Positions 3,039 to 27,706 of a stretch of 30,215 bases of DNA are shown piece after piece. A program made the translations under genes and the position numbers. The notes beneath the pieces are model-generated. The model was given only the letters and a program-made list of their open reading frames with translations, did no database searches and had not been told where the DNA came from. Location: positions 1 through 30,215 of IMG/VR virus record IMGVR_UViG_3300007072_000340. One strand, written 5' to 3'. Each line of letters opens with the position of its first letter. Within the stretch, counting starts at the first letter, position 1. This DNA is from a virus. Lineage: Duplodnaviria > Heunggongvirae > Uroviricota > Caudoviricetes.

Positions 3039-3075
3039 TATAGGGGACAACGCAAAACGGGGACGAATCCCGAGT
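3039..3075 (-). promoter_or_regulatory. Conserved bipartite promoter-like motif, copy 1
   Basis: + strand TATAGGGGACAACG-N15-TCCCGAGT; ends 11 nt before the ATG at 3028. Confidence 0.8.
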
Positions 3076-3090
3076 ACGAACTGGCGCGGG

Positions 3091-3522
3091 TTACCTTGCC
3101 CTCCGATTGGCGAAGATGCCGCAGGCATACCAGACGCCGTTGCTGCCGCGCACCATTGCGTACCCGTAATAGGTGCAGGGACCATTCACGGCCGCCCAAT
3201 GACCCGAGGAGAGCTTCCAAGAGCGATACATTTCTCTGGCCGCAGCGTTCACGTCTTGACCAGGCCAGCTTTCGTTGGCGACTTCCTTGAACGTGTCGCA
3301 ATCCGGCATCTGCCGCGCGATGCGGGCGTAGCGTTGGTCCCAGGCTTGATGGCCTTGAACCTGGACCCGAGCCTGATAGGCAGCGTGGTTTTCGGCCTCG
3401 CGTTGAAGTACGGGATGGGGTTGCCCGGCGCGGATGCTGAGGACGCCCAGGTCGCGGCCGGTCTGGACAAGTACCTGATTGGGCGTCAGGGCCGCCAGCA
3501 GAACGCACAGTAGGAAGTTCAC
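3091..3522 (-). CDS. CAP (SCP/PR-1) domain secreted protein
   Basis: GTG start overlapping the upstream TGA, signal-like N-terminus, WKLSSGHWAAV and GYAMVRGSNGVWYACGIF CAP-type motifs. Confidence 0.7.
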   Translation of the reverse strand: MNFLLCVLLAALTPNQVLVQTGRDLGVLSIRAGQPHPVLQREAENHAAYQARVQVQGHQAWDQRYARIARQMPDCDTFKEVANESWPGQDVNAAAREMYRSWKLSSGHWAAVNGPCTYYGYAMVRGSNGVWYACGIFANRRAR

Positions 3523-3803
3523 GAGTGGCAGCCTCCGCAGCAGCCGTCTTGTCGGCGCTGACGAACCAATTCCAGGGCCTCGGTCAAATCGGTCACGAAT
3601 TGCTCCGTATCCGGGTGCATCGCGCCGGGATCGCGGCCGGCGTAGCACTCTTCGTCGGTGACGGCGACCACGGCGATCTCGTCGGCCTCGGTGCCGACCG
3701 GGCTGTTCAGGTCGATCTGCTTGATGATCGTGCGCCGGCTGCCTGGCATCTCCAGTTTGTGGAGGAGAGACAACAAGTTGCGGCGGCTCAGTTTGACTTG
3801 CAT
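3519..3803 (-). CDS. Hypothetical protein
   Basis: 94 aa ORF, coupled to neighbours. Confidence 0.65.
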   Translation of the reverse strand: MQVKLSRRNLLSLLHKLEMPGSRRTIIKQIDLNSPVGTEADEIAVVAVTDEECYAGRDPGAMHPDTEQFVTDLTEALELVRQRRQDGCCGGCHS

Positions 3804-3807
3804 GGCG

Positions 3808-3978
3808 TCATTCCAAGGGTGGGAGTTTCAGGTCACGGGCGATCTTGGCGGCCAGCGTGTGTTCCAAGGCATCCAGGCCCGGGCCTCCGGCAATAGTGCG
3901 CAGGTGGTCGTAGACCCGGCGGGCCTCGGCTTCGCTGAGAATCACAATCACGCTACCGTCGATGTCAGTGCTGGGCAT
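3808..3978 (-). CDS. Hypothetical protein (56 aa)
   Basis: GGAG RBS then ATG at 3978 (MPSTDIDG...); the longer ORF-track version runs through the tRNA. Confidence 0.55.
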   Translation of the reverse strand: MPSTDIDGSVIVILSEAEARRVYDHLRTIAGGPGLDALEHTLAAKIARDLKLPPLE

Positions 3979-3992
3979 CAAGGTTCTCCGAA

Positions 3993-4067
3993 TGGCCCCG
4001 GCGGGACTCGAACCCGCATCCCAGGCTTGAAGGGCCTGCATCCTCACCAGTTAGAAATGACGGGGCC
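3993..4067 (-). tRNA. tRNA-Glu (anticodon UUC), atypical; CCA not encoded
   Basis: Acceptor GGCCCCG/CGGGGCC, anticodon stem CAGGC/GCCTG with loop CCTTCAA, T arm GCGGG-TTCGAGT-CCCGC. Confidence 0.85.
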
Positions 4068-4080
4068 GGACCAGTCTTTC

Positions 4081-4115
4081 GTCCCGCCCCAGGGAGGCGC
4101 GACCTGGGGCGGGAC
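4081..4115. repeat. Perfect 13-bp inverted repeat just 5' of the tRNA
   Basis: GTCCCGCCCCAGG-N9-CCTGGGGCGGGAC. Confidence 0.9.
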
Positions 4116-4129
4116 GCAGCACAGAGGGG

Positions 4130-4429
4130 TCACTTCGGGGTCTTCTTCAGCACCCGCGATACGGCCTTGCCGGCGGCCAATACGAGCCGGTCGATCTCGG
4201 CGTTGGCGGCCACGGCCGCCTGATTCAATTGCAGCAGTTCCACCAGATCGTTGCCGGCGCTGAGATAGATCGGGTCGCCTGAGCCAGCGGTCTTCATCGC
4301 CTCGCCTCGTGCCTCGACTTCCTTGCGAATCGCAGCGATCAAGGTTTGCAATTCCGCACCGGTCCCTTTCAGGTCGGACACGAGCACCTGCCCCAGGCGG
4401 CTGAGGCTTTCGCGGATTTCATTCGTCAT
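4130..4429 (-). CDS. Hypothetical helical protein
   Basis: ATG at 4429 overlaps the exonuclease stop. Confidence 0.65.
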   Translation of the reverse strand: MTNEIRESLSRLGQVLVSDLKGTGAELQTLIAAIRKEVEARGEAMKTAGSGDPIYLSAGNDLVELLQLNQAAVAANAEIDRLVLAAGKAVSRVLKKTPK

Positions 4430-5130
4430 GGGTTCATACCCTCCAATCGTTTGATGCCCAGTCGTATCAGCCGCACGACCGCCAGGGCATCTTCCACGGC
4501 GGTGTGGGCCACTTTGCCGTCCAGTCCGGCCCGTTCGTAGCAAGTCTTGCTGTCTGGCAGCCTCTCGTCTTCTGGCCGCAGGTAGAGGACGGCTGGATCG
4601 AGTGTGCGATGGTGCAGCTTCACCACCTGCTCGAATCTTGGAAGCCGTTTCAGGAATTGCCGATCAAAGCTGGCGAAGTTTTTGCCGGCCGGAGTGAGGG
4701 CGGCCCTTCCGTCCCAGCCGCAGCCTTTCAGCCAAGCAGCGAAGTCGTCAGCCACTTGGCCCGGGTCGCGCCACCACGGCTCCCGCCGGCCCGACAAGTG
4801 CCGCAGGAGATTGGCGTTCAGCGCCAAGGCGTAGGCGCTGCCACGATATTCCTTGTAATAGACCAGCCGGTGATAGACGGGCAACTCGCGGATCGGCTTC
4901 GTCCAGTCATCCCACACGGCTCCGATTTCGAGAATCTGGCAGGTCTCGGGATCGAGGCCCGTCGTTTCAATATCTATTGAGACGTAGGGCATCCTGGGCG
5001 GCGTGGCCGGCAGCCCTGGCTCGCGGCGGGCCGTGGCGGCAGGACCGGACCAGCCGCAGCCGTCGCAGTAGGCCGCGCCGTCTTCGGCGACCTTCAGCAG
5101 CTCTTCACACTTCGGACACAGTTTCTTCAC
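4426..5130 (-). CDS. DEDDh 3'-5' exonuclease with N-terminal Zn ribbon
   Basis: SIDIETTGLD, GKNFASFDRQFL and HTAVEDA motifs; CPKC...CDGC at the N-terminus; GTG start. Confidence 0.85.
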   Translation of the reverse strand: MKKLCPKCEELLKVAEDGAAYCDGCGWSGPAATARREPGLPATPPRMPYVSIDIETTGLDPETCQILEIGAVWDDWTKPIRELPVYHRLVYYKEYRGSAYALALNANLLRHLSGRREPWWRDPGQVADDFAAWLKGCGWDGRAALTPAGKNFASFDRQFLKRLPRFEQVVKLHHRTLDPAVLYLRPEDERLPDSKTCYERAGLDGKVAHTAVEDALAVVRLIRLGIKRLEGMNP

Positions 5131-5648
5131 GATTGATCCCCGTCGATGATCTCGGCGTTGTGCTTGAAGAGCATGGCTTGCACCCAGTCCTCGTGTTCTT
5201 GGTGCCAGGCCCCGCAGGAGCACGGGCCAATCAGCATGTCGCACGGTTGGCGGCAGGCGTTGTAGTGCCGGTCAGTCCAGTTTGCGGGCCAGGCAACGGA
5301 GCCATTCATGCGCTTCAGTTGTTGTTTCGCCGCGCGGTTGCGGAGAGCAACAAGCATCTCGATGATCGAGTGGGCGGCTTGCCGTCGTGCCAGGCAGACC
5401 CGGCGCAAGTCGGCCTCGACCGCGTGGCCGGCGTCGTAAATCTGCTCGGCGATCAGTTCCTTGCGGCACACGTCGCGGTACAGGTCGAGGGCCTGTGCGG
5501 CGGCCAGCACGGGGCTGAACACGTCGCTTCGTGGCGGAGTCGCCAGGGCCTCCTGCTGGTCCCTGAACCAGCCGCACACCTCACACAAACGGGCAGGGTC
5601 CCGTGCGGTTTCCAGGGGTGCCGTGCATCGCGGGCAGAACTCTGACAC
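5127..5648 (-). CDS. Cys-rich hypothetical protein
   Basis: CPRC...CEVC at the N-terminus and CRQPCDMLIGPCSCGAWH at the C-terminus. Confidence 0.65.
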   Translation of the reverse strand: MSEFCPRCTAPLETARDPARLCEVCGWFRDQQEALATPPRSDVFSPVLAAAQALDLYRDVCRKELIAEQIYDAGHAVEADLRRVCLARRQAAHSIIEMLVALRNRAAKQQLKRMNGSVAWPANWTDRHYNACRQPCDMLIGPCSCGAWHQEHEDWVQAMLFKHNAEIIDGDQS

Positions 5649-5660
5649 AATTCCACCTAA

Positions 5661-6137
5661 TCAAACTGGATTGAGCCAAGCGAACTCGCCAAATAAATAC
5701 CGTGCTGCCTTGTTGTAGGCTCGTGCCGCCTCCTTTGGTGTGTTGAAACAACCGAGGTGTTTCCTTTTACCGCCACCTATATGGATCACTGCTCTGATCT
5801 TCCCGGATGGGAGGGAGAATACGCCCTTGTATCCCAACTTGTTGTTGCGGTTTGGACCACGATTTCGGAGGTTCTGCTGGTGTGTTGCTGAACGGAGGTT
5901 GCTTCGACGATTGTTTAGACCGTTACCGTCTTTATGGTCGATATGTCTTGGACACCAGCCGGTTGTTAGGCGAAACACAACCCGATGCAAATAGCCATGA
6001 CTATGACTGGCTGCATACCAGGTGGTGCCTTTACGGCGTGCCGCTCTCCAAGGGCCGAGTGCAATCAACTTACTGAACAAGTCGGCATCGACAATCGTAA
6101 CCTTGCCTTGTGTGAGTGGTATCTTCCGAGTCATCAT
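5661..6137 (-). CDS. HNH endonuclease with AP2-type DNA-binding domain
   Basis: IDHKDGNGLNNRRSNLR, GYKGV, HLGCFNTPKEAARAYNKAARYLFGEFA; visibly more AT-rich than its flanks. Confidence 0.9.
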   Translation of the reverse strand: MMTRKIPLTQGKVTIVDADLFSKLIALGPWRAARRKGTTWYAASHSHGYLHRVVFRLTTGWCPRHIDHKDGNGLNNRRSNLRSATHQQNLRNRGPNRNNKLGYKGVFSLPSGKIRAVIHIGGGKRKHLGCFNTPKEAARAYNKAARYLFGEFAWLNPV

Positions 6138-6517
6138 ACCCCTAGCTCCCGGAGGGCTTGGATTTCGTGTTTCGTGAGCCTCCTGAGCACTTCACGCCGG
6201 AGCCGGAGGAGTCGGTCGTACTCGGTTTTCTCTTGCCGGTACGCTTCGACCGCTTCTTGGTACGCCTGGCGGCACGCTTCTTTCGTCCCCCGGCCGGACC
6301 TTCCGCAGGCGGCGCAAGGGATGGTGCGTCGGTACTTGTTGCCTTCGACCGGACACGGCGGGTCGTTCGGATCGTAGACCGTCCCTTGCCCTTTGCAGAG
6401 GAGGCAGGGGTATCGGTGTCCGAAACTTGCTCCGTGTGCAAGGCAGAAGAGTCCGAAGTTCTTGTAGGACCGGCGGGGCCGGATGCGTCGGAAGCCGGTT
6501 GTGAACTCTCGGTGCAT
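6134..6517 (-). CDS. Zn-finger protein (CxxCxGxG-type) with C-terminal helix
   Basis: CLLCKGQG and CAACGRSG; RBS-like GAGGA upstream. Confidence 0.7.
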   Translation of the reverse strand: MHREFTTGFRRIRPRRSYKNFGLFCLAHGASFGHRYPCLLCKGQGTVYDPNDPPCPVEGNKYRRTIPCAACGRSGRGTKEACRQAYQEAVEAYRQEKTEYDRLLRLRREVLRRLTKHEIQALRELGV

Positions 6518-7274: not shown

Positions 7275-7281
7275 AGACGCC

Positions 7282-7491: not shown

Positions 7492-7492
7492 C

Positions 7493-7579: not shown

Positions 7580-7600
7580 CGTGTCTGTCTTTCGTTCGAG

Positions 7601-8268: not shown

Positions 8269-8270
8269 GG

Positions 8271-8624: not shown

Positions 8625-8935
8625 GTCGTGTAGGCCGGGGATGCGATAGCGCCCAGCACTGTGCCGCTGTCATCGAGAGTCAAGTAGCCGTTCGTGCCAT
8701 GTGTAATGAGCCAGATCATCTTCGTCGTTCCCCTTTTCTCAAAACGGTTTCCGAATCGTTCCTCTCCGGCCGGCGGACTCAGGCTTAGGTCTCGCCACGA
8801 CTCCCATTCCATGAAATCCACGTGATCCCAGATGCAGGGCTTCTTCTCCGGGCGTGGTATCGACCCGCAGTTAGCGGCCTTCCGAGCAGCCTCTCGTCGA
8901 GCCGTGACTTCCAATGAGCGATCGGCGCTTTTCAT
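8621..8935 (-). CDS. Hypothetical protein
   Basis: ATG at 8935 after a GGAGG RBS; alternative internal start at 8719. Confidence 0.4.
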   Translation of the reverse strand: MKSADRSLEVTARREAARKAANCGSIPRPEKKPCIWDHVDFMEWESWRDLSLSPPAGEERFGNRFEKRGTTKMIWLITHGTNGYLTLDDSGTVLGAIASPAYTT

Positions 8936-9687
8936 CACTCCACCTCCCACAAGGCGCGGTGGATGTATTCCGAACGCTTCATGCCGTGTTCTTTGACGAT
9001 CTCCGCGCAGTAGTCGCGGTCGATTTCGATTAGGGTGCAGGGGTAGCCCAACCGGCGGCAAACGCGGAGCGTGGTGCCAGTGCCGCCAAACGGGTCAAGA
9101 ACCGACTCGCCCTCGGGCGTGGTGAGCCTGATGCACCGCTCGACTAAGCCCTCGTTCAACTGCGTTGGGTGCCAGGGGCGACGCTGCTTGCTGTTGCCCA
9201 CGACGCGGGTGAAGTCGAACACGTCGCCGGGCACGCGCCCGCGCGGGTCCGCCCGCTTGTCGCCGTTCTCTTGCCGCCAACTGGGAACGCGGATGGCGTC
9301 GGGCAGGAGCGGAGCGTCGGACCAACGCATTCGCAAGAGCGGCCGGTGGTTGTTGCCCAGATCGTGGTGATTGTGCTGGCCGAACGTGTAGGTCTGGACG
9401 CAGGGCTTGGCCTCCAAGCCGCTGATGCGATTGACCATCTCATGCACGATGCCGCCCAGGGCGAAGGACCACTTCGCGTTGTAGCTGAACCAGACCGTCT
9501 TCGCCTTGTGGACAAACAAGTGCAGCCAGGTTCTCAGCATGTCGATGTACTTGTCATCAGGCAGCCTATCCTTGTAGGTCTGGTAACCCAGGCCGATGTT
9601 GTCTGGCGGGTCGGCGAACAGCGTGGTCCACTGCTGGTGGCCGGCGTTGAGGTAGTCGAGGCAGTCGGCGTTAATCAGGGTGTGCAT
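8935..9687 (-). CDS. Beta-class N4/N6 DNA methyltransferase with DPPD in place of DPPY
   Basis: FADPPDNIG, HPTQLNEGLVERCIRLTTPEGESVLDPFGGTGTT, IEIDRDY. Confidence 0.85.
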   Translation of the reverse strand: MHTLINADCLDYLNAGHQQWTTLFADPPDNIGLGYQTYKDRLPDDKYIDMLRTWLHLFVHKAKTVWFSYNAKWSFALGGIVHEMVNRISGLEAKPCVQTYTFGQHNHHDLGNNHRPLLRMRWSDAPLLPDAIRVPSWRQENGDKRADPRGRVPGDVFDFTRVVGNSKQRRPWHPTQLNEGLVERCIRLTTPEGESVLDPFGGTGTTLRVCRRLGYPCTLIEIDRDYCAEIVKEHGMKRSEYIHRALWEVE

Positions 9688-13308: not shown

Positions 13309-13955
13309 GGCAACAACTCCTCGAAGACGGACGCGCCAAGCCGTGTGCAGCCCAGGTCCAGGTAGCGGGCGGCGTCGGCGTAGGTCTTGATGCCGCCGCT
13401 GGCCTTCACTCCCGCGCCGCTGCCGCGCACGGCATCGACCATGATCCTGACCGCTTCCTCCGTCGCCCCGCCGGAGCCGAACCCGGTGGAAGTCTTCACG
13501 AAGCCCACCCCGCAATCGACGCACAGCTTGCAGGCATCGCGAATCTGGTCTGGGTTGTAGTAGGACGTTTCCAGAATGGCCTTGATGACGACGGGCATGG
13601 GCCGGAAGAGGTTGACCAGCAGGGTCAACTCCTCCTTGACCGTCCGCGGCTTGCCGGCAAGAAAATGGCCATAGTTGACAACTACGTCCAGTTCGGTCGC
13701 CCCGTGGCTGACGGCCAGGCTGGCTTCCAGCACCTTGACGGCCGGCAAAGTGTTGCCGTGCGGGAAGCCGACGACGGTCGCGATCTCTTCGACGTACAGG
13801 CGCGCCAGGCCGACGTTGACCGGGGCCACACAGAGCGAGTGAATGTTCTGAGTCTTGACCTTGTGCGCCGCCCGCACGATGTCGGCGTGTGTGGCGGTCG
13901 GCTTCAGGACGGCCAGGTCCAGGGCCTCGGCAATCTGCTTCTTGGTGTAGCTCAC
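13305..13955 (-). CDS. deoC: Deoxyribose-phosphate aldolase
   Basis: VGFPHG, GATELDVV, KAILET, FVKTSTGF, GVKASGGI, RLGAS. Confidence 0.95.
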   Translation of the reverse strand: MSYTKKQIAEALDLAVLKPTATHADIVRAAHKVKTQNIHSLCVAPVNVGLARLYVEEIATVVGFPHGNTLPAVKVLEASLAVSHGATELDVVVNYGHFLAGKPRTVKEELTLLVNLFRPMPVVIKAILETSYYNPDQIRDACKLCVDCGVGFVKTSTGFGSGGATEEAVRIMVDAVRGSGAGVKASGGIKTYADAARYLDLGCTRLGASVFEELLP

Positions 13956-14551
13956 AAGGCGGCTTCCGGCAGGAAGTAGTGCGGGCGGATGCCCAGCACG
14001 TTGAAGATGAGGATTTCGGCGTGGAACTCGACGCCGGGGAACGTGTCGAGTGGCAGGGACACGATGCTGGTCAGGTCGGCCCGGCTGTCACGCAGCCAAC
14101 GCCAACGGGTGCTTTTCCGCCGCTGGTTCAGGCGAAAGCCCATCGGGGTGAACAGCACTACGGGCATCGTCTCGCCAAACAGCTTGAAGGCGTGCCGCAG
14201 GAACACCTCGGGGTAGAGTTGCCTGCCAGCCGCGCCGTTGAAGGGTGGATTGCAGAGCACCAGATCGGGCAACGGTCGGATGCTTTCTTGGTCCTCGAAA
14301 TGGCCGTGGATGAACCGCTGGCAGGCCGGCTTCCGGTCAACGATGTCGATGCCGATGATGCGACAGGCGTCGTCGTACCAAGGGTCCGTCAAGTGGCCGG
14401 TGCCAATGGCCGGGTCCAGGATCGTATCCCAACGGTTACAGCCGCCCAGTACGTCAAACAGGAACCGGGCCACGCCGGGCGGCGTATAAACGTCGCTCCG
14501 CTTCGGGCGGGTATGGTAGTCGTTTCGTTTGACGGTCAACGGGCTAGGCAT
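13952..14551 (-). CDS. N6-adenine DNA methyltransferase (NPPF)
   Basis: YTPPGVA, ILDPAIGTG, CNPPFN. Confidence 0.85.
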   Translation of the reverse strand: MPSPLTVKRNDYHTRPKRSDVYTPPGVARFLFDVLGGCNRWDTILDPAIGTGHLTDPWYDDACRIIGIDIVDRKPACQRFIHGHFEDQESIRPLPDLVLCNPPFNGAAGRQLYPEVFLRHAFKLFGETMPVVLFTPMGFRLNQRRKSTRWRWLRDSRADLTSIVSLPLDTFPGVEFHAEILIFNVLGIRPHYFLPEAAL

Positions 14552-14560: not shown

Positions 14561-15130
14561 TCACACGAGGGCTATCGAACCTTCCACTTCGTCACCGAAG
14601 GCGTCCCAGCCGGGCCGGCGCGTGCGGGCGAACATTTCCAGGTAGGGGCCAGGCGAAACGCTTTCGACCAGCCGATAGAACTCGTCCGGTTTGGCACTGT
14701 GCCGACCTCGCGGCCAGGCGAACCATGTCCCGCCGGTCGGGCCGAACGGGTTGCCGTGGCGTGCCCCTTTACGGCAGAGAAGGACGTGCTCGGTGTTGCA
14801 CTGGAAGCGGCCAACGCCGCGACCGGGCTTGCACCACGTCAACATCGTCCAGGGCTGGAAGCCCCAGGCCCGTGCCACGGCGTAGCCCCAGTCGATGTGC
14901 TGGTTGAGCACCCAGAGCCACAAGTGGGCCTGCTTCGCCCCCGGCACCTTCAGGCCGCAGATCGCATCGACGCTCATGGTTCGGTAGTGCTTCTGGGGCC
15001 GCCCCTTATCGGTAAAGCGAGTCTTCCAGGTGGCCCCCAGGACGGGCGTCCACGGCGGATCGGCGACAATGGTGCGGTAAACCACCGTCTCTTCCGCGCC
15101 TGTGCTTTCGTGTCGAGGAGACCGGCTCAT
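14561..15130 (-). CDS. MT-A70 family adenine methyltransferase
   Basis: IVADPPW, HYRTM, EHVLL, HSAKP, LEMFAR..RPGW. Confidence 0.9.
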
Positions 15131-15777
15131 GGGTTTGTTTTGACGAACACCAGGAAGTACGAGTGATTCTTTCTGGCATGGACCTGCTTCTTCAGCCGAC
15201 TCACTCCGGGTCGATTCGTCCGCACGAGCACAAACAAATCCTTGGCGTGGAACCCAATCGCGGCGTACTCGTTGACGATCTCAACGTGGGTCAAATGCTG
15301 CTGGTTGGCGCTCACTTCGTCTTGGCACTTGACAATGAGGATGCCCCGATTGCGCAGCACTCGACGGGCCTCGATAGCGGCCTCGACGTACAGCGACAGG
15401 ACGGCCGCGTGATACCGCGGGCCGCTTGTAGTCGTGGCTGAAGAGGCGTAATGCTCGCGAAAGGACGCATGAGACCCGGACCCCGCAAGCTGCTCCGCGG
15501 TTTGGCGGAAGAACCCCTCCATGTACGGCGGGTCAAGCACAACAGCGTCGATGGAGGCATCCTCATAGGGCAGTCTCCGGCAATCCACGCCGGTCTTCAG
15601 GTCGGTGGCCAGCAACGTATAGAGGGTCGGATCGACTTGCTTCCAGAAGGCCCCTTTGCCGTAGGTCACGTCCGCGACCTTGGAACCGCGCGGCACGTGC
15701 AGACGCAGGATGTCGGCGAAGACATGCGCGTTCTGGCCGACGTGCGCGCTGAGAACTAGGTCAAGCGGGACAGCCAT
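15127..15777 (-). CDS. SAM-dependent DNA methyltransferase-like protein (DPPY)
   Basis: [33 protein letters not shown]. Confidence 0.75.
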
Positions 15778-15793
15778 ACAGGATTTCGAGAGA

Positions 15794-16387
15794 TCATCGG
15801 TGCAGTGACCTCCGGCGCAGGATCGTCGCTTCCTCATGGAGCCGGCGGGTAAGCACCTCGGGGCGGGTCATTTCAATCACTTGCTGTCGCACGTCACTTC
15901 GATGAAGGCGTCGGATAGCACAGGACAACTCGTAAAGCTTCTCTTCGCGGGCGTTGATATGGCCGTGGCCGAAGAAGGGCCAGTAATCGTGCAGGGCTTC
16001 ATGGACCACAATCAGCGCTCCGTCCTCTGGCGGCCACGACAGCACTTCGGGATCAATCGTGATGCCGGGGCAGTACGGGACGTTGACGCCGACCGTCTTG
16101 CCGTTGGGGTAGACGCCGACGCACGGTGCCACCATGACATCCCATGCGCCGGCACGGCTGTAGCGACGGATCGTGTAGTCCAGGATGTCGCACAGGTCCG
16201 GGGCGTCGCACGACTCCCGCATCGCCCTCAGATGGTCGATGGCCCGGTCGAGCCACGCTTGCTCGTAGGCATGGTCGCCGCACAGGCCGTAGTACAAGCC
16301 GCCGATGTAGGCCGGCGCGCACGCGCCCAACGCCAGGCCAAGCGCGACGGTGCGCAGATACCGGAGGAGCCTATATCTCGGCTTCAT
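15794..16387 (-). CDS. Membrane-anchored HExxH protein
   Basis: N-terminal TM segment; VVHEALHD. Confidence 0.55.
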
Positions 16388-17654: not shown

Positions 17655-17691
17655 CTATCAAAACAACGCGAAGGCAGCGCGATACCCGAGT
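17655..17691 (-). promoter_or_regulatory. Conserved bipartite promoter-like motif, copy 3 (divergent)
   Basis: + strand CTATCAAAACAACG-N15-ACCCGAGT. Confidence 0.7.
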
Positions 17692-19033: not shown

Positions 19034-19798
19034 TTAGAAGTTGGTGAACAGGACTTCGGTCTTCGTCTTGCCACGGGAGTTGTGCCGCCCGGCCCCGGCC
19101 CGGCTGGCGGTCACGCGGTCGATGCGGTTCCAGCCGCGGTAGAACTCCGCAGCTTCCGGGTACTCGGATACCGCCACTTTGGCGCTGGCCGAGTTCAGCA
19201 GTTCGACCATCGCGGGATAGTCGATGCGGTAGCGGTACTCGTCTTCGTGGCCATAGTAAGGCGGATCGACATAGATCAGGGCTTCTGGGTCGCGGTAAAC
19301 CCGCTGGATTGCCACCAGGGCGTCTTCGTGCAACAGCGCGACGCCGCGCATCCGATTTGCAGCGGGCAAGACCCGCCGGAACCAATCCGCCCAGACCTCG
19401 GGCTTCGGCTTGTGCGGGGCCGGGCACTTGTCGAGCGACCACGTGGAGGAATTGCCGTTGCCGCAGTAGAACTGCACGCCCTGCGCCATCAAGAGCACAG
19501 CCTGGTCGATGTCGCCTACGGGCTGTTCTCGCCAGTTGGCGGCCGAATAGGGCGTAGCCCAGAGCAGCGCAGCCAACTGTTCCGGCTGCGACTTGACCGC
19601 CCGCCACATGCCCATGACCACTTCGTCCAGATCGTTGATGATCTCGACGAACGAGCGGGGCTTGGCCAGGAGCACGGCGGCCGAAGCGCAGCACGGCTCC
19701 ATGTAAACCCGATGCTCGGGGAAGTGCGAGACGATCCACTTGGCGATGGACGCCTTGCCGCCGTACTGGCGATACGTAATCTTTGGCGTGGCGGTCAA
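19034..19798 (-). CDS. Dam/D12-class DNA adenine methyltransferase
   Basis: YGGKASIAKWIVSHFPEH, INDLD, HEDAL, YVDPPY. Confidence 0.9.
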   Translation of the reverse strand: MTATPKITYRQYGGKASIAKWIVSHFPEHRVYMEPCCASAAVLLAKPRSFVEIINDLDEVVMGMWRAVKSQPEQLAALLWATPYSAANWREQPVGDIDQAVLLMAQGVQFYCGNGNSSTWSLDKCPAPHKPKPEVWADWFRRVLPAANRMRGVALLHEDALVAIQRVYRDPEALIYVDPPYYGHEDEYRYRIDYPAMVELLNSASAKVAVSEYPEAAEFYRGWNRIDRVTASRAGAGRHNSRGKTKTEVLFTNF

Positions 19799-21108: not shown

Positions 21109-21144
21109 AACTCGCTATTAGGTCAAAAGGTCTGAATTACTCTC

Positions 21145-21181
21145 CATAAGGGACAACGGAAATCAGACCCGTTTCCCGAGT
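21145..21181 (-). promoter_or_regulatory. Conserved bipartite promoter-like motif, copy 4
   Basis: + strand CATAAGGGACAACG-N15-TCCCGAGT. Confidence 0.8.
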
Positions 21182-21744
21182 GCTGCCGCCAACTTCTTTT
21201 CCAGATAACGGCGGGGGTCAAAGGCCCAGTTGGCGTTCCAGGGCCTCGGCACGAGGATTACGTGGCCTCCGAGGGCCTGGAAACGGTCGGTGTTCTCGCT
21301 GTAGTCGTCGATCAAGAGGGCGTCCGGCCGGGCGAAAAGGTGTTTGCGGGGCGTGATGGCAAACTGCCGGTGCATCCACGGCGGAAAGTGCCCGTGAATC
21401 CACTCCAACTTGCCGGCCAGGCTTTCGGGGCATTTGGTCGGGCTCGTAGCGATGCAGACGCCCTCGCGGCCGACCGCCTCGGCGCACCTCTCCAAGAGCC
21501 AGGCGAAGAACGGCGACTCGGGGACCTGGACCCAGACCGAGCGTGGGATGGACGCCCAGAACGTGGCTGGCGTGTAGCGAGACTCGCCCAGCAGGTGGTT
21601 GGCCGCCTCGGAAACGCGGTAGCCGAACTGGCGCGGGTAGGTCGCGTAGTCAGTCGGAGCGATGCGGCAACCGACTGAGTGCAACACGAACGGGGCCAGT
21701 GTGTTGCACACGTCGTCCAGGTCTAGGAAGATGCGCTGAATCAC
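21163..21744 (-). CDS. HAD-family 5'(3')-deoxyribonucleotidase (NT5C-like)
   Basis: IFLDLDDV, ATSP, KLEW, LLIDD, PRPWN. Confidence 0.8.
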   Translation of the reverse strand: MIQRIFLDLDDVCNTLAPFVLHSVGCRIAPTDYATYPRQFGYRVSEAANHLLGESRYTPATFWASIPRSVWVQVPESPFFAWLLERCAEAVGREGVCIATSPTKCPESLAGKLEWIHGHFPPWMHRQFAITPRKHLFARPDALLIDDYSENTDRFQALGGHVILVPRPWNANWAFDPRRYLEKKLAAALGKRV

Positions 21745-22424
21745 TGGTTGCGAACGGCCTCCATCTTGCGCCGGACCCTGGCCTCCAACGCGCTTACCAT
21801 GACGTGGGTTGATGAAACCGGCATGTGGAGCGCTGCCGCGATCTCGGTGAACTTGTAGCCGGCCTCCCGCATGGCCACGAAGGTCCGTTCCGCGTCGCAG
21901 GTGCAGCAGGACTCAATCAGGTCGCGCGTTTCCAGTTCCTTCTGGTAGGAAGGCACCTCGAATCGCTCGGGAACGACATTGTGGACCGTGGGAGGATTCA
22001 ACTCCTGGCCTTGAGCACGTGCGCGATAGCGCGATCGCGGCGGCAACCGGATCAGGCTGGCCGAGGCAATCAGGTTGCGCAATTCCCGATTGATCCACAT
22101 GCCCAGAAACTCGACCGGTGCGGACGGATCGGTGCTGCGTGGACCCTTGCCCGTTGCGATTCTGTTCACGCCTTCCACAAGCCCGGTAAACGCGGCGCTG
22201 ACAAGATCGTCGCGCAGATGGGCAATGCCGGGACAAGAGCGAATGAAGCTCTCGACGTTGGTGACAGCCAGAGGCATGTTGCCGACTATCATTTCCTCGC
22301 GGGCCGTGGCATCCCCGGTTGCCACGCGCTTGAAAAGGGCCAGGTTCTTCTCGGCGTCCAACGTCTCACCGCTGGTCGCCTGATGAAGATTGCTGATAAG
22401 AAGATCGTTGTAAGGATTACCCAC
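21741..22424 (-). CDS. Sigma70-family RNA polymerase sigma factor (short, regions 2 and 4)
   Basis: GDATAREEMIVGNMPLAV, DDLVSAAFTGLVEGVNRI, YKFTEIAAALHMPVSSTH; GGAGG RBS before the GTG. Confidence 0.75.
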   Translation of the reverse strand: MGNPYNDLLISNLHQATSGETLDAEKNLALFKRVATGDATAREEMIVGNMPLAVTNVESFIRSCPGIAHLRDDLVSAAFTGLVEGVNRIATGKGPRSTDPSAPVEFLGMWINRELRNLIASASLIRLPPRSRYRARAQGQELNPPTVHNVVPERFEVPSYQKELETRDLIESCCTCDAERTFVAMREAGYKFTEIAAALHMPVSSTHVMVSALEARVRRKMEAVRNQ

Positions 22425-22917
22425 GGCCGCACCCTCCAATCGCGTCGATCCGCCAGGCGCAGCGGGTGTAGAACTGGTGGGCTTCACAGGCGAGGCGGCT
22501 GTAGTCGTAGACTGGCCCGCGCGGGTCGTGGATGCGGCCGTGGTCGTAGGCGACCATGTGGCCGTGGCGTGCGCCGGTGCCGTCGATGACGCCCCGGCTG
22601 TTGCGGATCGTGGCCTCGAATCGCCGCCAGTTGTTGTCGGGGTAGAGCACCGTTTTGCGGAACGGTCCTGCTTCGGTCGGTTGCAGCACGGGAAACAACT
22701 CGACCGGCGTGACGGCCATGCCGCGCGCCAACGCGACGTGAACTAGCTCTTGAACGTGAAAGCACCGCCGGCACAGCGGCTCGGGAAGTGATGAACAGAC
22801 GATCTCGCTGCCGTCGTGGCCTATGGCGGCGAGCAGATCGGCGACGGGCACGTCCAAGGCCATCGCAAAGGCCAGCGGCATACACATCCACGGTTCGGGT
22901 CGCTGTTGCAGATTCAT
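22417..22917 (-). CDS. Possible papain-fold (C39-like) peptidase
   Basis: Q-x-C-x2-A-x-AM N-terminal pattern (QRPEPWMCMPLAFAM) and HMVAY...HDP. Confidence 0.45.
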   Translation of the reverse strand: MNLQQRPEPWMCMPLAFAMALDVPVADLLAAIGHDGSEIVCSSLPEPLCRRCFHVQELVHVALARGMAVTPVELFPVLQPTEAGPFRKTVLYPDNNWRRFEATIRNSRGVIDGTGARHGHMVAYDHGRIHDPRGPVYDYSRLACEAHQFYTRCAWRIDAIGGCGRG

Positions 22918-22968
22918 AGCGCAGGGTTTCTCCGCAGTTGGCGGGTGTAACGAGTTGCGAGAAGCGAG

Positions 22969-23364
22969 CTACCAGCCTTCGCGGTCTAGCTCGTCGAGGA
23001 GGGCGTCGATGTCAGGAACCTGACTCCACGACTCCTTCCAGTAGTCGCGCCAGTTGGGCGGCTTGAACAGTTTGTCGTACTCTTCCTGCGTGGCCGCAGT
23101 GAGTATCCAGATGCCGGTGCCCTTGGCTTCCCAGAGCGGCCACTTGAACCGCTGGGCTTTGGTAAACGTGTACCTCTTCGGTTGCTTACAGTCGATCCAC
23201 CGCTGGCCCCATTTCTCGTGCATCACGTACAGGTCGGGGAACCCGGTCTGGTACAAGTTGCCGTGCGTTCTTTCAACGTGCCATTTACGCGCACGGAGAA
23301 ATGTGATTAAATCACGTTGAATGAACCACTCCGGGCCGTGGCGCGGTCGTCGTATGCTGCCCAT
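22969..23364 (-). CDS. VRR-NUC family nuclease
   Basis: EWFIQRDL, GFPDL, WIDCK, TKAQ. Confidence 0.75.
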   Translation of the reverse strand: MGSIRRPRHGPEWFIQRDLITFLRARKWHVERTHGNLYQTGFPDLYVMHEKWGQRWIDCKQPKRYTFTKAQRFKWPLWEAKGTGIWILTAATQEEYDKLFKPPNWRDYWKESWSQVPDIDALLDELDREGW

Positions 23365-23870
23365 TGCTTCATCATCTCCGGCGCTACCCGCTGGCGTCCT
23401 GTAAGCCACGACCAACTCATTCCTTTAATCACGTTGTAAATGGTAGTTGGTTTGCGCCTCAGTTCCCGAGCGATCTCAGCCGGCGTGCGGCCTTTGTTGT
23501 CCAGGTCAACGATCCTTCCTACCTCATATTCGGTGAGCACCGCCTTTCCGTGTTGTCGCCCTCTCGCAGTGCGATTCTTTCGCTTGCAGTCTTGGCGGTT
23601 GTCCTTCTGCGTGCCGGCAAATAGGTGTCGCGGATTTACGCAGCGTGGGTTGTCGCACGAGTGGCATACGTGCAAGCTCGTTGGGCCGTATGCCAGTTGG
23701 TAAGAGATGCGGTGAGCCAAGTACGTCTTCGACAAACCTCGGGGACCGACCGAGAAGTTGCCGTAGGGGTTCCGAGGGCCGCCGCCTTGCCAAAGCCAAC
23801 AGTCCGTTGGCCCTTTCCGGTCCACGAAAGACCAGAAACGCTGAATGTCTGCCTGCGTCAGCTTTATCAT
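23307..23870 (-). CDS. HNH endonuclease with C-terminal HTH
   Basis: CWLWQG, AHRISY, VCHSCDNPRCVNPRHL, GTQKDN, AEIAREL. Confidence 0.9.
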   Translation of the reverse strand: MIKLTQADIQRFWSFVDRKGPTDCWLWQGGGPRNPYGNFSVGPRGLSKTYLAHRISYQLAYGPTSLHVCHSCDNPRCVNPRHLFAGTQKDNRQDCKRKNRTARGRQHGKAVLTEYEVGRIVDLDNKGRTPAEIARELRRKPTTIYNVIKGMSWSWLTGRQRVAPEMMKQWAAYDDRATARSGSFNVI

Positions 23871-26365
23871 TTCAACATCTCCGGCGGGCGTATCTTGACT
23901 TGTTTGGCTCCCGCCTTCTTTTCCGCCCAGGAGGACATCTCTTCATTCCAATCCATTGCGATGAGCGGCACTTTGGGACGGAAGAACTCAACAGCTTCAG
24001 TTACAACGGCCGTCACCGGCTTCACGTAATTCGGCCGCGTGACGCACATCAGTTCGTCATGGATGTTCAGGATTGCCACCCGCCACTCGTGGACGCCGAC
24101 CGGCTGCAAGTCCCAAATCCTCCGCTGGACGTGCTTGGTGATTTCAGCCCCCGGCGACTGGATTTCATGGTTCGCCGCTGCGCGCATGTTGGCTGCCTGC
24201 ATCGAAAAGGCCGCGCCGTAGAGGGCCGACGAGACGGCACCTCCGGCCGTCTGCACGCGGTCGCGGCGGACGACCTTGACCTTGCAGTCCTTCCAGTGCT
24301 TGGGCGTGTTGTGGGCCAGGTCGAAGATCGCGCGGGCGATGCGGTTCTCCAAGGTGAAGTAGCGCCGGAAGCCCAGCATCGTCTCGGCGAAGTCGGCTGG
24401 GTCTCTCCAGACCACCTTCGTGCCGATGCCGCCCGGTTGCGTCATGGAACAGAACGAGTCGGCGACCCGCTTTCGCCACTTCTTGACCCCCACGAAGCGG
24501 CTGCCGAAGTTCTCGATGGCCGCCCTGGCGACCTCTTCGCTGATCCCCAGGCGGTTGACCAAAGTGCTATGGTCGCCGCCGTAGAGCATCGTGCCGAAGA
24601 AGCCTTGCTTTCCCTTCGTGTACATGTCGTTGGTCGTGCTGCCGTCGCTCGACTTCACCTCCTCGTAGGTCGTGCCGGGGAAGATGGCCATGCCGAAAAG
24701 CGCGTGAATCTTCCGGCCGGCGATTAGCTCAGCGCGAAGGGCCTCGTCGTTGCATACGGCATCCGCGATCGTCACCTCAAAAGAACTGAAGTCGCCGCCG
24801 CAGAGCAGATACCCCGGCCATGCCAGGGGGAACATCTGCCGGACCTCTTTGGTGTGCTTGATCCCTTGAGCGTTGAGGCCGTCGGCCCCAGCCATGCGGG
24901 ACGAGAGGGCACCGATCACCACGAACGAGGCGTGGAACTTGCCGGCCAGGAGCAGCTTCTCGTATAGCTCGATTTCCTTGGCCGCAAACTTGACGGCGAG
25001 GATTTCCTTGGCGCGAACTCCGGCCGGATGGTGGCCAACCTTCAGGAAGCCCGTACCGCCGCAGCGGGCGCACTGCGGGTCGCCGCCCAGGCACGCGCCG
25101 CACGGCTCCGGCTCGCCGACGTAGCACACCCCGCTGCACTGCGGGCAGAGGTTTCCAGGCTTTTCCAGAAACCCCTTGCCCTTGCAGGCCGGGCACATCT
25201 CGCCGATGCCCCACTTGCTGATCGCTTCGAGATTGGCCTTCTTCGTGGATTCTTCGAGGATCACCTTCTCGGTGTCATCCATCGCCGCCGTGATGTAGGC
25301 CCGCACCTCGCTCGGCTTGTTGATGTTGACCGGGCTGGCCGCCACAACGGCCTGGGCCTTCGCCATCAGGCCCTTGATCCCTTCGCGGTCGATCGTGAAC
25401 CCGTGCCAACGGACGGCGGCCACCATGCAGGTCAGGGTGGAGTCGTTGTCGCCCGGCTCTGGGCAGCCGAAATGCTTGTCCAGCGCCCGCGTATAAACAA
25501 TGTCGTCGGTGGCGTACTCACGGGCGTCTTGGCGGGTCGCCCAGTGGTCGATGAATTCCCGAATCACGCCGGGCCAGGCATACTTCGTGACCTTCTTGCC
25601 GCTGTCTCCATCCGCCTCAACCGCCCAGCCCCTTTCAGGACTCGACACGGCCAGGGCCGTGGGCGCATAGCCCAGCTCGTAGGGCCGCCATGCCGGGAGC
25701 GGCTCCACGTCTTTGTAGTGGTACTTGGGCTGGAGCTTCAGGGCGTGCTCGGCGAGAAACTTTAGCCCGCCGGCTGGGGAGAACTTCAAGACGACATCCT
25801 TGAAGTCGGTGTCCAGGTCGCCGAAGGAATCGTGGCGGTCGAAGACCTGCCACTTGGGCGCTTCCGGGTCTGCCGACTTGGCGAAGTAGATGTTGTCAAA
25901 CTGGACGCGGGCCTCCAGCTCGCGGGCCAGGGCATAGGCCAGCGCCGTGGGCACCCGCTTGATGCGGACATCCTCGCGGGCCATGAGCGACTGATAGGGG
26001 CCTTTGCGGCTGTGGAGCATCAGGTCCAGGACCGCTGCCGGCTTGACACATGGCCCATCCTGCCCCTGCGGCTCCAGTATGGCGATCTCGTCGATGTGCT
26101 CCTCGGGAATCCAGTCCGGGTTGCACAGGCGAAAAATGGTGTAAGTCTTGACGACATGGAACCAGTCAAAAGCCAGATTGAAGCCGACGACCCTGTGCCG
26201 ACATATCCACTCGACGAGCGCCAGCGTCTCGCGGATCGGCTGCCGCCAGACCTCGTAGAGCGTGATCGGGCCGTCCTCCACGGCATACTGCAACAGCACC
26301 ATCATGCCGTGCAACCCGCACGTTTCGGTATCGAGATAGACTTTCGGTGGCAACTTCTCAGGCAT
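23867..26365 (-). CDS. polA: Family A DNA polymerase with 3'-5' exonuclease domain
   Basis: LDTET, GFNLAFD, YATDD; motif A DFSSFE, motif B KQGFFGTMLYG, motif C IHDEL. Confidence 0.95.
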   Translation of the reverse strand: MPEKLPPKVYLDTETCGLHGMMVLLQYAVEDGPITLYEVWRQPIRETLALVEWICRHRVVGFNLAFDWFHVVKTYTIFRLCNPDWIPEEHIDEIAILEPQGQDGPCVKPAAVLDLMLHSRKGPYQSLMAREDVRIKRVPTALAYALARELEARVQFDNIYFAKSADPEAPKWQVFDRHDSFGDLDTDFKDVVLKFSPAGGLKFLAEHALKLQPKYHYKDVEPLPAWRPYELGYAPTALAVSSPERGWAVEADGDSGKKVTKYAWPGVIREFIDHWATRQDAREYATDDIVYTRALDKHFGCPEPGDNDSTLTCMVAAVRWHGFTIDREGIKGLMAKAQAVVAASPVNINKPSEVRAYITAAMDDTEKVILEESTKKANLEAISKWGIGEMCPACKGKGFLEKPGNLCPQCSGVCYVGEPEPCGACLGGDPQCARCGGTGFLKVGHHPAGVRAKEILAVKFAAKEIELYEKLLLAGKFHASFVVIGALSSRMAGADGLNAQGIKHTKEVRQMFPLAWPGYLLCGGDFSSFEVTIADAVCNDEALRAELIAGRKIHALFGMAIFPGTTYEEVKSSDGSTTNDMYTKGKQGFFGTMLYGGDHSTLVNRLGISEEVARAAIENFGSRFVGVKKWRKRVADSFCSMTQPGGIGTKVVWRDPADFAETMLGFRRYFTLENRIARAIFDLAHNTPKHWKDCKVKVVRRDRVQTAGGAVSSALYGAAFSMQAANMRAAANHEIQSPGAEITKHVQRRIWDLQPVGVHEWRVAILNIHDELMCVTRPNYVKPVTAVVTEAVEFFRPKVPLIAMDWNEEMSSWAEKKAGAKQVKIRPPEMLK

Positions 26366-26511
26366 GTCGCTCTTTCGACTTCGACGAGACTTCCGGCCCT
26401 TCGCACGAATCCCCGCCGGCCACGGCGGCTATCGTTGCCGGCCGGGCTTCACCAAACCCAGCCACCGGCGGCGCGATTTTGGGTCCAGCGCCAGGACGCG
26501 CGCAGGAAGTC

Positions 26512-26868
26512 TCAGAACACGTCATAGGACCACCGGCTGCCGTCGTCGCGTTCTCCCTTGACGCTGGCGGCCACCACCGGCTGGGTGCGATAGACGGCGT
26601 TGCGGAATCGGATTTCCAGGGCCAGGCCCTTGCCGATCCAGAAAGGGACCGGCGCGCCGGGATTCGGCCAGTGGACGCTATGGAGCAACTGGCCCACCGT
26701 CGCCGTCCGCAGAGTCGGGTCGCTGGAACTGATCCCCACGATGCCGTGGGCCGGATACATGACGCGAATCTCATAGAGATACGGTTCCGCCTCCAGGAGG
26801 ATCACGGTCTCCGGCTTCAGCTTCCGTATGTCGATCCCCGACTCAGCCGGGGCGGTTGGCACGAGCAT
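26512..26868 (-). CDS. Hypothetical protein
   Basis: GGAGG RBS, ATG at 26868, first gene after motif copy 5. Confidence 0.7.
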   Translation of the reverse strand: MLVPTAPAESGIDIRKLKPETVILLEAEPYLYEIRVMYPAHGIVGISSSDPTLRTATVGQLLHSVHWPNPGAPVPFWIGKGLALEIRFRNAVYRTQPVVAASVKGERDDGSRWSYDVF

Positions 26869-27706
26869 CGAATTCCTCCCTATCAGGGACAACGCAATCC
26901 CCGGCACTTCCCCGAGTTGCCGCTTCGATTTCTCTCAACAACTCCTCGTCGGCGACGTGGCCGGCACACCACGCCGCCACCCGAGGCGGCAGCCCACCGA
27001 TGCCGGCGGCCAACATCCGTTCGATCATGCCGTTGATCTCTTCGCGGCGGCGCACGCCACGGCGGCGTTTGTACGTTCGATTCAGGCCGGGCAGGAACTT
27101 CCCCCGGCCGCGTTGCCGCGCCGCGACGATCTCGTTGGCGGCTTTGATCTGTTCGTCCGGCCTCTCAAGCCCTGCCAGCATCTCTACGTTCGCTTGCGAC
27201 AGCAGGCCGGCAGCCGCTTTCTGCTGGATCGCCTCCGGCATCCGCAGCAGCCGGACCCGAATATGGACCCACTTCGTGGGCTGCTTCAGCTCGGCCGCCG
27301 CGTGCCGCACGCTCGCTCCTTCGGGATAGAGGTTTTGGATCGCGCGGGCTTCTTCCAGGATGTTCAGGCTCTTGCGTTGCAGGTTCTCCACGAAGTTCAA
27401 CATGCGGGCTTCGTGGTCGGTCAGGCCCTCGCAGATGTAAGCCGGGATCGCGGTCCATTTCAGAAAGGTGGTCACGGCCTTGAAGCGACGGTGCCCGACG
27501 ATCAGCCGGTACGCGAAGCCCTCGGCCTTGGTCCACGGTTGAACGGCCACCGGGCAGATCAGCCGCCCGGCTTCGGCAATGCTGTCGGCCAGTTCCTTGA
27601 CGGATTGCAGCGTGAACTCTCCCCGGCAGTTGAAAGCGGCGTCGTAATAGATGGCCGCGACCGGAATCGAGTACGCCTTGTACTGCTCCAATTCCGGCAG
27701 ACTCAT
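26843..27706 (-). CDS. ParB/Spo0J-like protein
   Basis: ELADSI, LIVGHRRFKA, ENLQRKSLNILEEA, HTH region. Confidence 0.9.
   Translation of the reverse strand: MSLPELEQYKAYSIPVAAIYYDAAFNCRGEFTLQSVKELADSIAEAGRLICPVAVQPWTKAEGFAYRLIVGHRRFKAVTTFLKWTAIPAYICEGLTDHEARMLNFVENLQRKSLNILEEARAIQNLYPEGASVRHAAAELKQPTKWVHIRVRLLRMPEAIQQKAAAGLLSQANVEMLAGLERPDEQIKAANEIVAARQRGRGKFLPGLNRTYKRRRGVRRREEINGMIERMLAAGIGGLPPRVAAWCAGHVADEELLREIEAATRGSAGDCVVPDREEFDARANRPG
26881..26917 (-). promoter_or_regulatory. Conserved bipartite promoter-like motif, copy 5
   Basis: + strand TATCAGGGACAACG-N15-CCCCGAGT, inside the 3' end of the ParB gene. Confidence 0.8.

Follow-up and report, generated by a model that had tools for sequence, protein, structure and literature searches.

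Virus record IMGVR_UViG_3300007072_000340 is a single sequence of 94,215 bp, classed as a provirus in IMG/VR and with a CheckV completeness estimate of 91%. The stretch of DNA analysed here, denominated the window, is its first third (30,215 nucleotides, positions 1 to 30,215). Nearly all the likely genes of the window are found on the minus strand. Read on this strand, the sequence ACTCGGG-N16-CGTTGT, made of two boxes at fixed distance, is repeated five times in the window at short distance from start codons, and the gene of a short sigma factor (ORF, open reading frame, 21741-22424) is located downstream of one of the copies. The comparisons described below suggest that the repeats are probably promoters private to the phage, read by the sigma factor that the phage itself encodes. 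A similar proposal had been made in a first-pass annotation of the window, derived from its letters.

The genome is that of a tailed phage or prophage of about 94 kb hosted by Planctomycetota. Genes for the large terminase, portal, major head protein, scaffold and tape measure are located at 58-74 kb. Planctomycetota is supported as host phylum because 11 of the 12 sigma homologues found in genomes sit in contigs of metagenome-assembled genomes (MAGs) of this phylum (Thermoguttaceae, Planctomycetaceae, Pirellulales).

Occurrence and geometry of the two-box repeats

An exact search of the window for ACAACG-N16-CCCGAGT, the plus strand reading of the element, returned five matches, listed as P1 to P5 in Table 1. 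None of 100 dinucleotide-preserving shuffles of the window contained a match, and no extra site emerged when two mismatches were allowed. The whole 94,215-bp genome hosts seven copies, two of which (P6 and P7) are outside the window. All seven are co-oriented with the downstream genes, the box end being located 14-44 nucleotides (nt) before the start codon (17-44 nt for the five window copies). ACTCGGG and CGTTGT are invariant in the aligned copies, while the 16-nt spacers are unrelated, except that they start with A/T and are T-rich in the 3' half. Four of the five window copies extend to CGTTGTCCC, CGTTGT being followed by CCC; the copy at 17663 (P3) has TTT instead. A semi-conserved, purine-rich box (ATAGAG, GGAGAG, ACAGAG or ATGGAG) is found 3-5 nt past CGTTGTCCC. 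The two boxes feature neither dyad symmetry nor mutual complementarity.

A relaxed scan of the genome, with two mismatches per box, yielded 10 sites against about 6 in shuffles, the additional ones being antisense within genes. The repeats are a crisp, all-or-none class, because relaxed scans yield nothing above chance, and the idea of a degenerate tail of weaker sites was accordingly discarded. A sigma-32-like or sigma-70-like reading of CCCTTATAG was similarly rejected by inspection, as no conserved upstream partner is found at the right spacing.

Five window copies in one orientation, with invariant boxes 16 nt apart, non-conserved spacers, closeness to start codons and an extended motif in four cases had all been described in the first-pass annotation, and exact search and alignment agree with it on each point. 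Two other statements have to be amended. Three copies had been thought to overlap the 3' end of upstream reading frames, and the overlap can be demonstrated for two only, P5 inside the ParB-like gene and P4 over the stop codon of the NT5C-like gene; the remaining three window copies look intergenic, as judged from the G+C content at codon positions. The supposed regulon of five blocks, in turn, grows to seven blocks when the whole genome is searched.

The sigma factor

ORF 21741-22424 encodes a genuine, very divergent, two-domain protein of the sigma-70 family. Sigma-2 spans about residues 20-135, and sigma-4, which includes the helix-turn-helix, about residues 160-227; sigma-3 is missing. Taken alone, the window protein matches phrog_351 (annotated as 'sigma factor', E 3e-4), Sigma70_r2 (E 0.015) and Sigma70_r4_2 (E 0.016), the latter two in the correct order, and TIGR02937 (E 8e-5, residues 41-220, full model covered). 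The protein is recognisable solely through the profile of its own family or its fold. Homologues number 87, at 34-70% identity, and 28 of them were used to build the family profile. All 28 match the TIGR02937 sigma-70 superfamily model, the best at 4e-13, and one family member matches Sigma70_r4_2 at E 7.5e-6. Among the 60 PDB matches listed for the family profile only sigma factors are found, led by SigF (1e-10) and SigK (4.6e-8), then SigA/RpoD/RpoS/FliA; the alignments cover profile positions 9-135, corresponding to regions 2.1-2.4, with E from 1e-10 to 1e-3. In the SigF alignment an invariant LRDDL..GL..AVN motif corresponds to region 2.2, and a WINREL motif to regions 2.3/2.4. The family is large: an exhaustive profile search found 107 cluster representatives at E <1e-30 and 440 at E <1e-10, and more than 100 clusters are obtained at 50% identity.

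The AlphaFold model (mean predicted local distance difference test score, pLDDT, of 80) features a helical sigma-2 and a four-helix sigma-4, with pLDDT about 90 in the C-terminal helices. The domains are connected by a short helix (129-137) and by a linker (138-158) that is disordered, with no sigma-3 bundle. The model has two additional N-terminal helices, aligned with the part of group 1-3 sigmas that resembles region 1.2. The best Foldseek matches of the model are sigma-32, sigma-S, SigA and sigma-E, full-length for sigma-32, sigma-S and sigma-E. The short sigma that had been read from the sequence is therefore confirmed by family profile, TIGR02937 and fold. Membership among extracytoplasmic function (ECF) sigmas, hinted at in the annotation through the CGTT -10 element, is not. 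PF07638 (Sigma70_ECF) matched 3 of the 28 members, the best at 1e-4, while the SigF, SigG, SigK, SigE and RpoS models matched all 28, with scores comparable to TIGR02937. The protein cannot be filed as an ECF sigma, since ECF-specific models match few members and those of SigF, SigG and SigK rival the superfamily model.

A hypervariable loop is found between two sigma-2 helices, at about residues 88-110 (DNA about 22095-22163). It comes in few types, such as GKGPRSTDPSAPVEF and GCxIKxPxNWNPTDC, and its identity follows that of the -10 box more closely than the remainder of the protein does. ECF sigmas have an analogous variable loop in sigma-2. The tract 88-110 is a candidate specificity loop.

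Related loci share the layout and differ in the boxes

The regions around sigma homologues were compared in 35 IMG/VR loci and 12 genome loci. The exact motif of the window is absent from all 47 of them; near-matches at about position 9610 (minus strand) in relatives all fall at a single conserved place within a homologous gene of the opposite strand, and were set aside. Unanchored discovery of dyads was too noisy in this GC-rich DNA, and was replaced by a search anchored on syntenic junctions, which succeeded. Many relatives host their own multi-copy dyads, all organized as 7 nt, N16, 9 nt and a purine-rich box (Table 1). They occupy two syntenic junctions: one lies about 4-5 kb upstream of the sigma gene, at the 3' end of the ParB-like gene, and the other immediately downstream of the sigma gene, at the 3' end of the NT5C-like gene. 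CAGTCT, GGTCCT and GTTGAT are further -10 boxes found among relatives. A box of the GGAG/AGAG type follows the dyad in every lineage, even where a separate Shine-Dalgarno sequence sits further downstream. Since it is kept in spite of the latter, the box belongs to the signal or to the 5' end of the transcript, and is not only a ribosome-binding site.

The number of dyads in relatives ranges from 3 to 12, being 4-8 in viral contigs: four in each of four L011-type records, five in L009, four in L020. In these the sigma strand hosts all copies and the opposite strand none, and reversed-pattern controls gave none either. A complete record of the L028 type, 113.8 kb long, has eight copies, seven of which are on one strand. 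When the motifs of ten relatives were searched in the genome under study, no promoter-like site was found, the single match being antisense inside a tail gene.

Several relatives also encode highly acidic proteins. Long GAC/GAT repeats (L016:3520-3720, L031:2556-2750, L014:3916-4100, L027:2930-3450) correspond to poly-Asp/Glu runs in an ORF found, in several relatives, about 6-7 kb upstream of the sigma gene; the products are possibly DNA mimics or regulators.

Sigma and boxes vary together

Among the copies of one genome 13-16 box positions are identical, and between lineages all copies have been switched together. The reader of the boxes must consequently differ between lineages. The DNA-reading parts of housekeeping sigmas are nearly invariant across bacteria. 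Those of the phage sigmas vary between lineages, as seen in the alignment, and loci having near-identical sigmas have identical boxes.

Some pairs of lineages differ in one half only. Between this phage and L009 the -10 box agrees at 8 of 9 positions and the sigma-2 loops (residues 88-110) are 74% identical; the -35 boxes differ, and the helix-turn-helix of sigma-4 is only 44% identical. In the comparison of L011 with L017 or L026 the -35 box is kept (7/7), the -10 box matches at 4 of 9 positions, and the sigma-2 loops are 26-35% identical.

It is possible, and is offered here tentatively, that nature offers in this family a series of sigma/promoter pairs orthogonal to each other, with independent and repeated re-setting of the -35 and -10 specificities, privacy itself being selected. 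The sharing of CGTTGT by this phage and L009, and of ACTCCAG by L011, L017 and L026, which differ in the -10 box, exemplifies such independent re-setting. If this holds, privacy would for instance stop co-infecting or resident related phages from using the transcription programme of each other, and a recognition code for a minimal sigma would be readable from the paired data.

The motifs in phage and chromosomal DNA

In a 3.8-Mb Thermoguttaceae MAG the local motif is found 10 times, nine on the 137-kb contig that carries the sigma gene and one on another contig, against none in the control. In a 9.3-Mb Pirellulales MAG it is found 12 times, about one being expected by chance for this 12-base pattern. 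Eight of the 12 fall in the last 113 kb of the contig with the sigma gene and four are on a second contig; at least two of these four have spacers identical to copies found in the complete phage record. The motif of the window was sought in five Planctomycetota MAGs (32.6 Mb), which may not include the host of the phage, and gave one match against one control match.

A motif common upstream of host genes, a possibility raised with the first proposal, is hence not what is seen in the relatives' MAGs, nor in the 32.6 Mb of Planctomycetota DNA, where the window motif is at chance level. The scan of element and host chromosome then suggested can be answered in full for the element, with its seven copies, and indirectly for the chromosome, through the MAGs of two relatives, whose own motifs are confined to the sigma contig and one other.

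A model and its alternatives

The phage sigma probably reads the private two-box promoter, as judged from motif geometry, protein family and the parallel changes of the two. The small two-domain protein would bind the core of the host RNA polymerase, sigma-4 reading ACTCGGG as the -35 element and sigma-2 reading CGTTGT(CCC), 16 nt downstream, as the -10 element. Transcription would begin few bases on, within or just before the purine-rich ATAGAG/GGAGAG box, which often may serve also as ribosome-binding site. The seven promoters, five of which are in the window, would split the leftward genes for replication, nucleotide metabolism and DNA modification into units, and the copy at 79 kb would drive two small rightward genes. 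The core of the first proposal, an element-encoded sigma paired to a private two-box promoter and located behind one of its copies, stands up to all the computational tests made here; from these we infer the direct recognition of the boxes, the position of start sites, the timing and the autoregulation.

The sigma gene belongs to the P5 unit and, in agreement with the early observation that it lies downstream of this copy, is located 4.4 kb behind it. Little space separates the intervening genes, and a convincing intrinsic terminator was not found between P5 and the sigma gene, terminator-like sites being fewer than in shuffles; in the regions scanned, intrinsic terminators were not above shuffle expectation. 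A sigma gene 3.8-5.2 kb downstream of a copy is found in at least 12 lineages. Positive feedback is plausible because of the packed genes, the few terminator-like sites and this recurrent placement. Once present, the sigma would reinforce its own synthesis via P5, the first molecules being made from a separate promoter.

Several results weigh against this model, or restrict it. The window sigma falls under the curated cut-offs of every sigma model, among them PF04542 (12 versus 24 bits), PF08281 (12.1 versus 25.7) and TIGR02937 (22.3 versus 42.9 bits). Mantel correlations over 12 lineages have the expected direction, the upstream box going with sigma-4 (0.54) more than with sigma-2 (0.42), and the downstream box with sigma-2 (0.59) more than with sigma-4 (0.49), a trend with small margins that shared ancestry confounds. 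No simple residue-to-base code was found in the sigma alignment, where ACTCCAG pairs with several different recognition helices. Matches to a sigma-70-like early promoter, from which the first sigma could be made, are not above shuffle expectation in the regions scanned. The structural module (46-78 kb) has no copy of the motif, therefore the sigma cannot account for the whole transcription programme. Finally, another phage DNA-binding protein varying together with the boxes would equally yield lineage-specific boxes.

This last point also speaks for having one or both boxes bound by a different phage protein, such as a MotA-like activator working with the host sigma, a repressor, or a ParB-like or helix-turn-helix protein, so that the repeats would be operators or activator boxes. 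The phage does encode two ParB-like, two HTH_17 and one HNH-HTH protein, and one copy of the motif lies inside a ParB-like gene. The explanation is nonetheless unlikely, as the site is asymmetric, and unlike boxes at a fixed distance of 16 nt, all co-oriented and 14-44 nt away from starts, have the geometry of promoters, not the palindromic one typical of parS sites and operators. The sigma gene is moreover the sole DNA-reading gene always found between two copies, and the host housekeeping sigma, on which an activator would rely, cannot read the downstream box, since this has a non-sigma-70 sequence that varies by lineage. Quite unlikely is also that the motif is the promoter of an alternative sigma of the host, for example a Planctomycete ECF, the phage sigma then having different targets or a different role. 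In favour of this are the 16-nt spacer and the -10 box beginning with CGT, as is usual for promoters of the ECF type (PMC5758882), and the fact that the chromosomes scanned are those of hosts of relatives and MAGs of the phylum. Against it stand the distribution of the motifs in those MAGs, described above, and the shift of the boxes, between close phages, along with a gene of the phage. Anti-sigma factors normally keep host ECF sigmas inactive, so that a core replication programme would hardly be based on them.

Identical short sequences scattered over the genome of a phage might also have nothing to do with transcription, and be RNA-level elements, sites of recombination or packaging, or remnants of mobile repeats. 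This is highly improbable. The repeats keep a constant position and orientation with respect to start codons, and lineages with different boxes have them at the same junctions. The boxes have no potential to pair with each other, and no pairing covaries across lineages; RNA elements, as well as operators and parS sites, are disfavoured by this lack of covarying pairing and by the lack of dyad symmetry. Mobile repeats are disfavoured because neither spacers nor flanks are conserved. Recognition by the phage sigma is the reading followed below.

Genes associated to the seven copies

Table 1. Two-box copies and associated genes of the phage, and dyads of related loci (positions are those of the window, or of the genome for P6 and P7)
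Feature	Position or dyad	Strand	Remarks
P1	3047..3075	-	18 nt before ATG 3028; heads block of small ORFs that ends in two HTH_17 proteins
HTH_17 (excisionase/MerR-like) proteins	1152-1436 and 817-1233		end of P1 block
P2	8048..8076	-	42 nt before ATG 8005; heads block of small ORFs without assigned function
P3	17663..17691	-	17 nt before ATG 17645 (ORF of 33 amino acids, aa); sole copy with TTT for CCC
P4	21153..21181	-	spans NT5C-like stop codon; 44 nt before GTG 21108
NT5C-like 5'-deoxyribonucleotidase gene	21163..21744	-	last gene of P5 unit; 3' end overlaps P4
Sigma gene	21741..22424	-	227 aa, divergent, sigma-70 family; start at ATG 22424 confirmed by homologues
P5 unit upstream of sigma	22417..26868	-	118-aa ORF 26512-26868, DNA polymerase A 23867-26365, HNH endonuclease 23307-23870
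P5	26889..26917	-	inside 3' end of ParB-like gene; 20 nt before ATG 26868
ParB-like gene	26843..27706	-	last codons are -35-like box and spacer of P5
P6	35895-35923	-	outside window; 44 nt before ATG
P7	79079-79107	+	outside window; 14 nt before ATG; heads 75-aa and 121-aa ORFs
L009 (sigma 67% identical)	rCTCTCG-N16-CGTTGT	sigma strand	
L010, L011, L013, L024, L036	ACTCCAG-N16-CGATCTCCC	sigma strand	
L017	rCTCCAG-N16-GGTCCTACT	sigma strand	
L020	ACTCCAA-N16-CAGTCTATC	sigma strand	
L026	rCTCCAG-N16-CGTCATAGC	sigma strand	
L014	GTCTAA-N16-CGGCGCrTT	sigma strand	
L027, L028	AAACCAG-N16-ACTCT	sigma strand	
L029, L030	rCTCCAA-N16-TGATyCAAC	sigma strand	
L031	GCGCGCA-N16-TACGACTCT	sigma strand	
L034, L035	CTmT-N16-GTTGATGTG	sigma strand	

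The seven-promoter regulon looks like a 'middle' class, including replication, nucleotide metabolism and DNA modification functions, because its copies front replication and modification genes and the structural module has none. Downstream of P3 are found the 33-aa ORF, an RNA ligase, three methyltransferases, an HNH-containing protein and others. P4 precedes a 55-aa ORF, a DNA ligase, a methyltransferase and a 341-aa ORF. The P5 unit consists of the 118-aa ORF, DNA polymerase A, the HNH endonuclease, two further ORFs, the sigma and NT5C genes; in P5 the CGTTGT box is followed by CCC and then by tgATAGGGAGG, which doubles as Shine-Dalgarno sequence. The first gene of the P6 unit is that of a large DNA methyltransferase and has an HNH ORF embedded in it; genes for a helicase, a protease-like protein, an exonuclease, a phosphoesterase and a ParB protein follow.

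The C-terminal tail of the ParB-like protein varies with the promoter of the lineage, as ..EIEAATPES.. or ..EIEAATRG.. (window 26843-26917; relatives e.g. L011:6130-6195), because its last codons are the -35 box and the spacer of the promoter. At this junction the constraint on the DNA seems to come more from the promoter than from the protein tail.

Among the putatively sigma-driven blocks of the window are five separate genes for DNA methyltransferases (8935-9687, 13952-14551, 14561-15130, 15127-15837, 19034-19798). Together with the large one at 34-36 kb they denote an unusually heavy investment in DNA modification, presumably directed against restriction. The latter, a 540-aa DNA methyltransferase, is the first gene behind P6 (genome 34,228-35,850; L001:4228-5850). 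An HNH endonuclease ORF (L001:4415-4858) lies inside its gene, in a different frame, as does a terminator-like hairpin (L001:4919-4903, minus strand).

A divergent intergenic region of 124 bp (genome 78,998-79,121; L003:8998-9121) separates P7 from the first leftward gene on the structural side. The region is AT-rich (ctataaaagactgcc..gttttttt), and is the most likely site for the promoter of the leftward late genes. A second repeated motif was sought for the structural module, and nothing stood out.

Comparison with known systems

Among characterised systems the nearest is gp36 of phage phiEco32, a distant sigma homologue with sigma-2-like and sigma-4-like domains which directs the core polymerase of the host to the phage promoters and is helped by the co-factor gp79 (PMC12276001; PMC4331800). 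Middle and late promoters read by gp36 share AATGTA, centred at -11.5 (tAATGTAtA) (PMC12276001; PMC4331800), and in both phiEco32 and phage 7-11 the sigma gene is located behind such promoters, in a positive feedback (PMC4331800). A divergent two-domain phage sigma, multi-copy phage promoters and a sigma gene behind one of the copies are features in common with gp36 and the 7-11 sigma. Differently from the promoters described here, with two strong boxes 16 nt apart, that of gp36 mainly consists of one element in the -10 region. No co-factor has been identified here, and late (structural) genes lack the motif. The phages differ also in their hosts, E. coli and Salmonella for the podophages, Planctomycetota here. 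No phage sigma was among the 60 PDB profile matches listed.

Phage sigmas such as SPO1 gp28 and gp33/34 and T4 gp55 displace the host sigma on the core, switching temporal classes of genes, and the promoters of SPO1 gp28 are bipartite, with -35 and -10 elements. The combination of a bipartite promoter and a phage sigma is the likeness to SPO1 gp28, whose sigma switch is summarised in PMC13401047. In contrast to SPO1 and T4, only one sigma is found here and no cascade is visible, and there is no detectable close sequence relationship. T4 gp55 further differs for a promoter having the -10 element only, and for the use of the sliding clamp.

Promoters of ECF sigmas have -35 boxes with AAC, -10 boxes with CGT and spacers of 14-17 nt (PMC5758882). 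ECF sigmas consist of sigma-2 and sigma-4 only, are autoregulated, and come in many mutually distinct pairs, exploited in orthogonal circuits (PMC5758882; PMC6101570; PMC5829568). Domain layout, 16-nt spacer, CGT in the -10 box and a sigma gene behind its putative promoter recall this group (group 4), the two additional N-terminal helices recalling groups 1-3 instead. ACTCGGG lacks the AAC hallmark, however, the cut-offs of ECF models are not reached, and sigma-2 scores best against the group 3 sporulation sigmas (SigF, SigG, SigK). Relatives vary in this respect: the -35 box of L027/L028 is AAACCAG, and the -10 boxes of other lineages differ from the CGT form. No anti-sigma gene is evident, and the system is encoded by a virus and fronts replication genes rather than a stress regulon.

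A promoter that is private to the lineage, present in multiple copies, diverging with its probable reader and followed by a conserved purine-rich start region (here ATAGAG/GGAGAG) also recalls the polymerases of the T7 group. The start region of T7 is purine-rich and conserved, TATAGGGAGA. There is, differently from the T7 group, no single-subunit polymerase here, and split boxes reach about 40 nt upstream, whereas the T7 promoter is contiguous over about 20 nt. A T7-like polymerase, an idea prompted by the TATAG-like start region, was rejected since none is encoded and the signal is bipartite. A six-frame search with PF00940, which had no positive control, gave no match. ORFs longer than 550 aa have all been given another function or belong to the tail module; the 889-aa protein is the primase, and other large proteins are helicase, DNA polymerase A, portal, terminase, tape measure and tail proteins.

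The system is a new and diverse family of a known strategy, a phage sigma with its cognate promoters, and not a new mechanism, the principle with positive feedback being already textbook matter. No description of this sigma family, or of sigma factors in Planctomycetota phages, was found in the literature. If the model is correct, phages of Planctomycetota would here obtain their first worked-out transcription signal; phage biology is almost absent for this phylum, and genetic tools are few. Since each genome features a sigma and several putatively cognate promoter copies, the family offers dozens of ready-paired, compact parts (about 225 aa and about 45 bp), which are probably orthogonal, and a natural data set on how sigma-2 and sigma-4 change specificity. 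For annotation purposes, the operons of the replication and DNA modification module are delimited by the motif, which also sets this module apart from the structural genes; these must be transcribed otherwise.

Other features of the genome

No close relative of the window was found by megablast among deposited phages. In the same set tblastn gave one unannotated fragment with the sigma, and only matches at 20-30% identity with the polymerase. An array of 36 tRNA genes, covering most amino acids, is located on the minus strand at genome positions 81,370-86,020 (L003:11372-16021); all were called by ARAGORN, and 26 are confirmed by Rfam. Far from the array, a partial tRNA-like Rfam match (31.9 bits, gathering threshold 29, model positions 10-63) is found in the window at 4001-4056 on the minus strand, and may be a tRNA fragment or the remnant of an attachment site.

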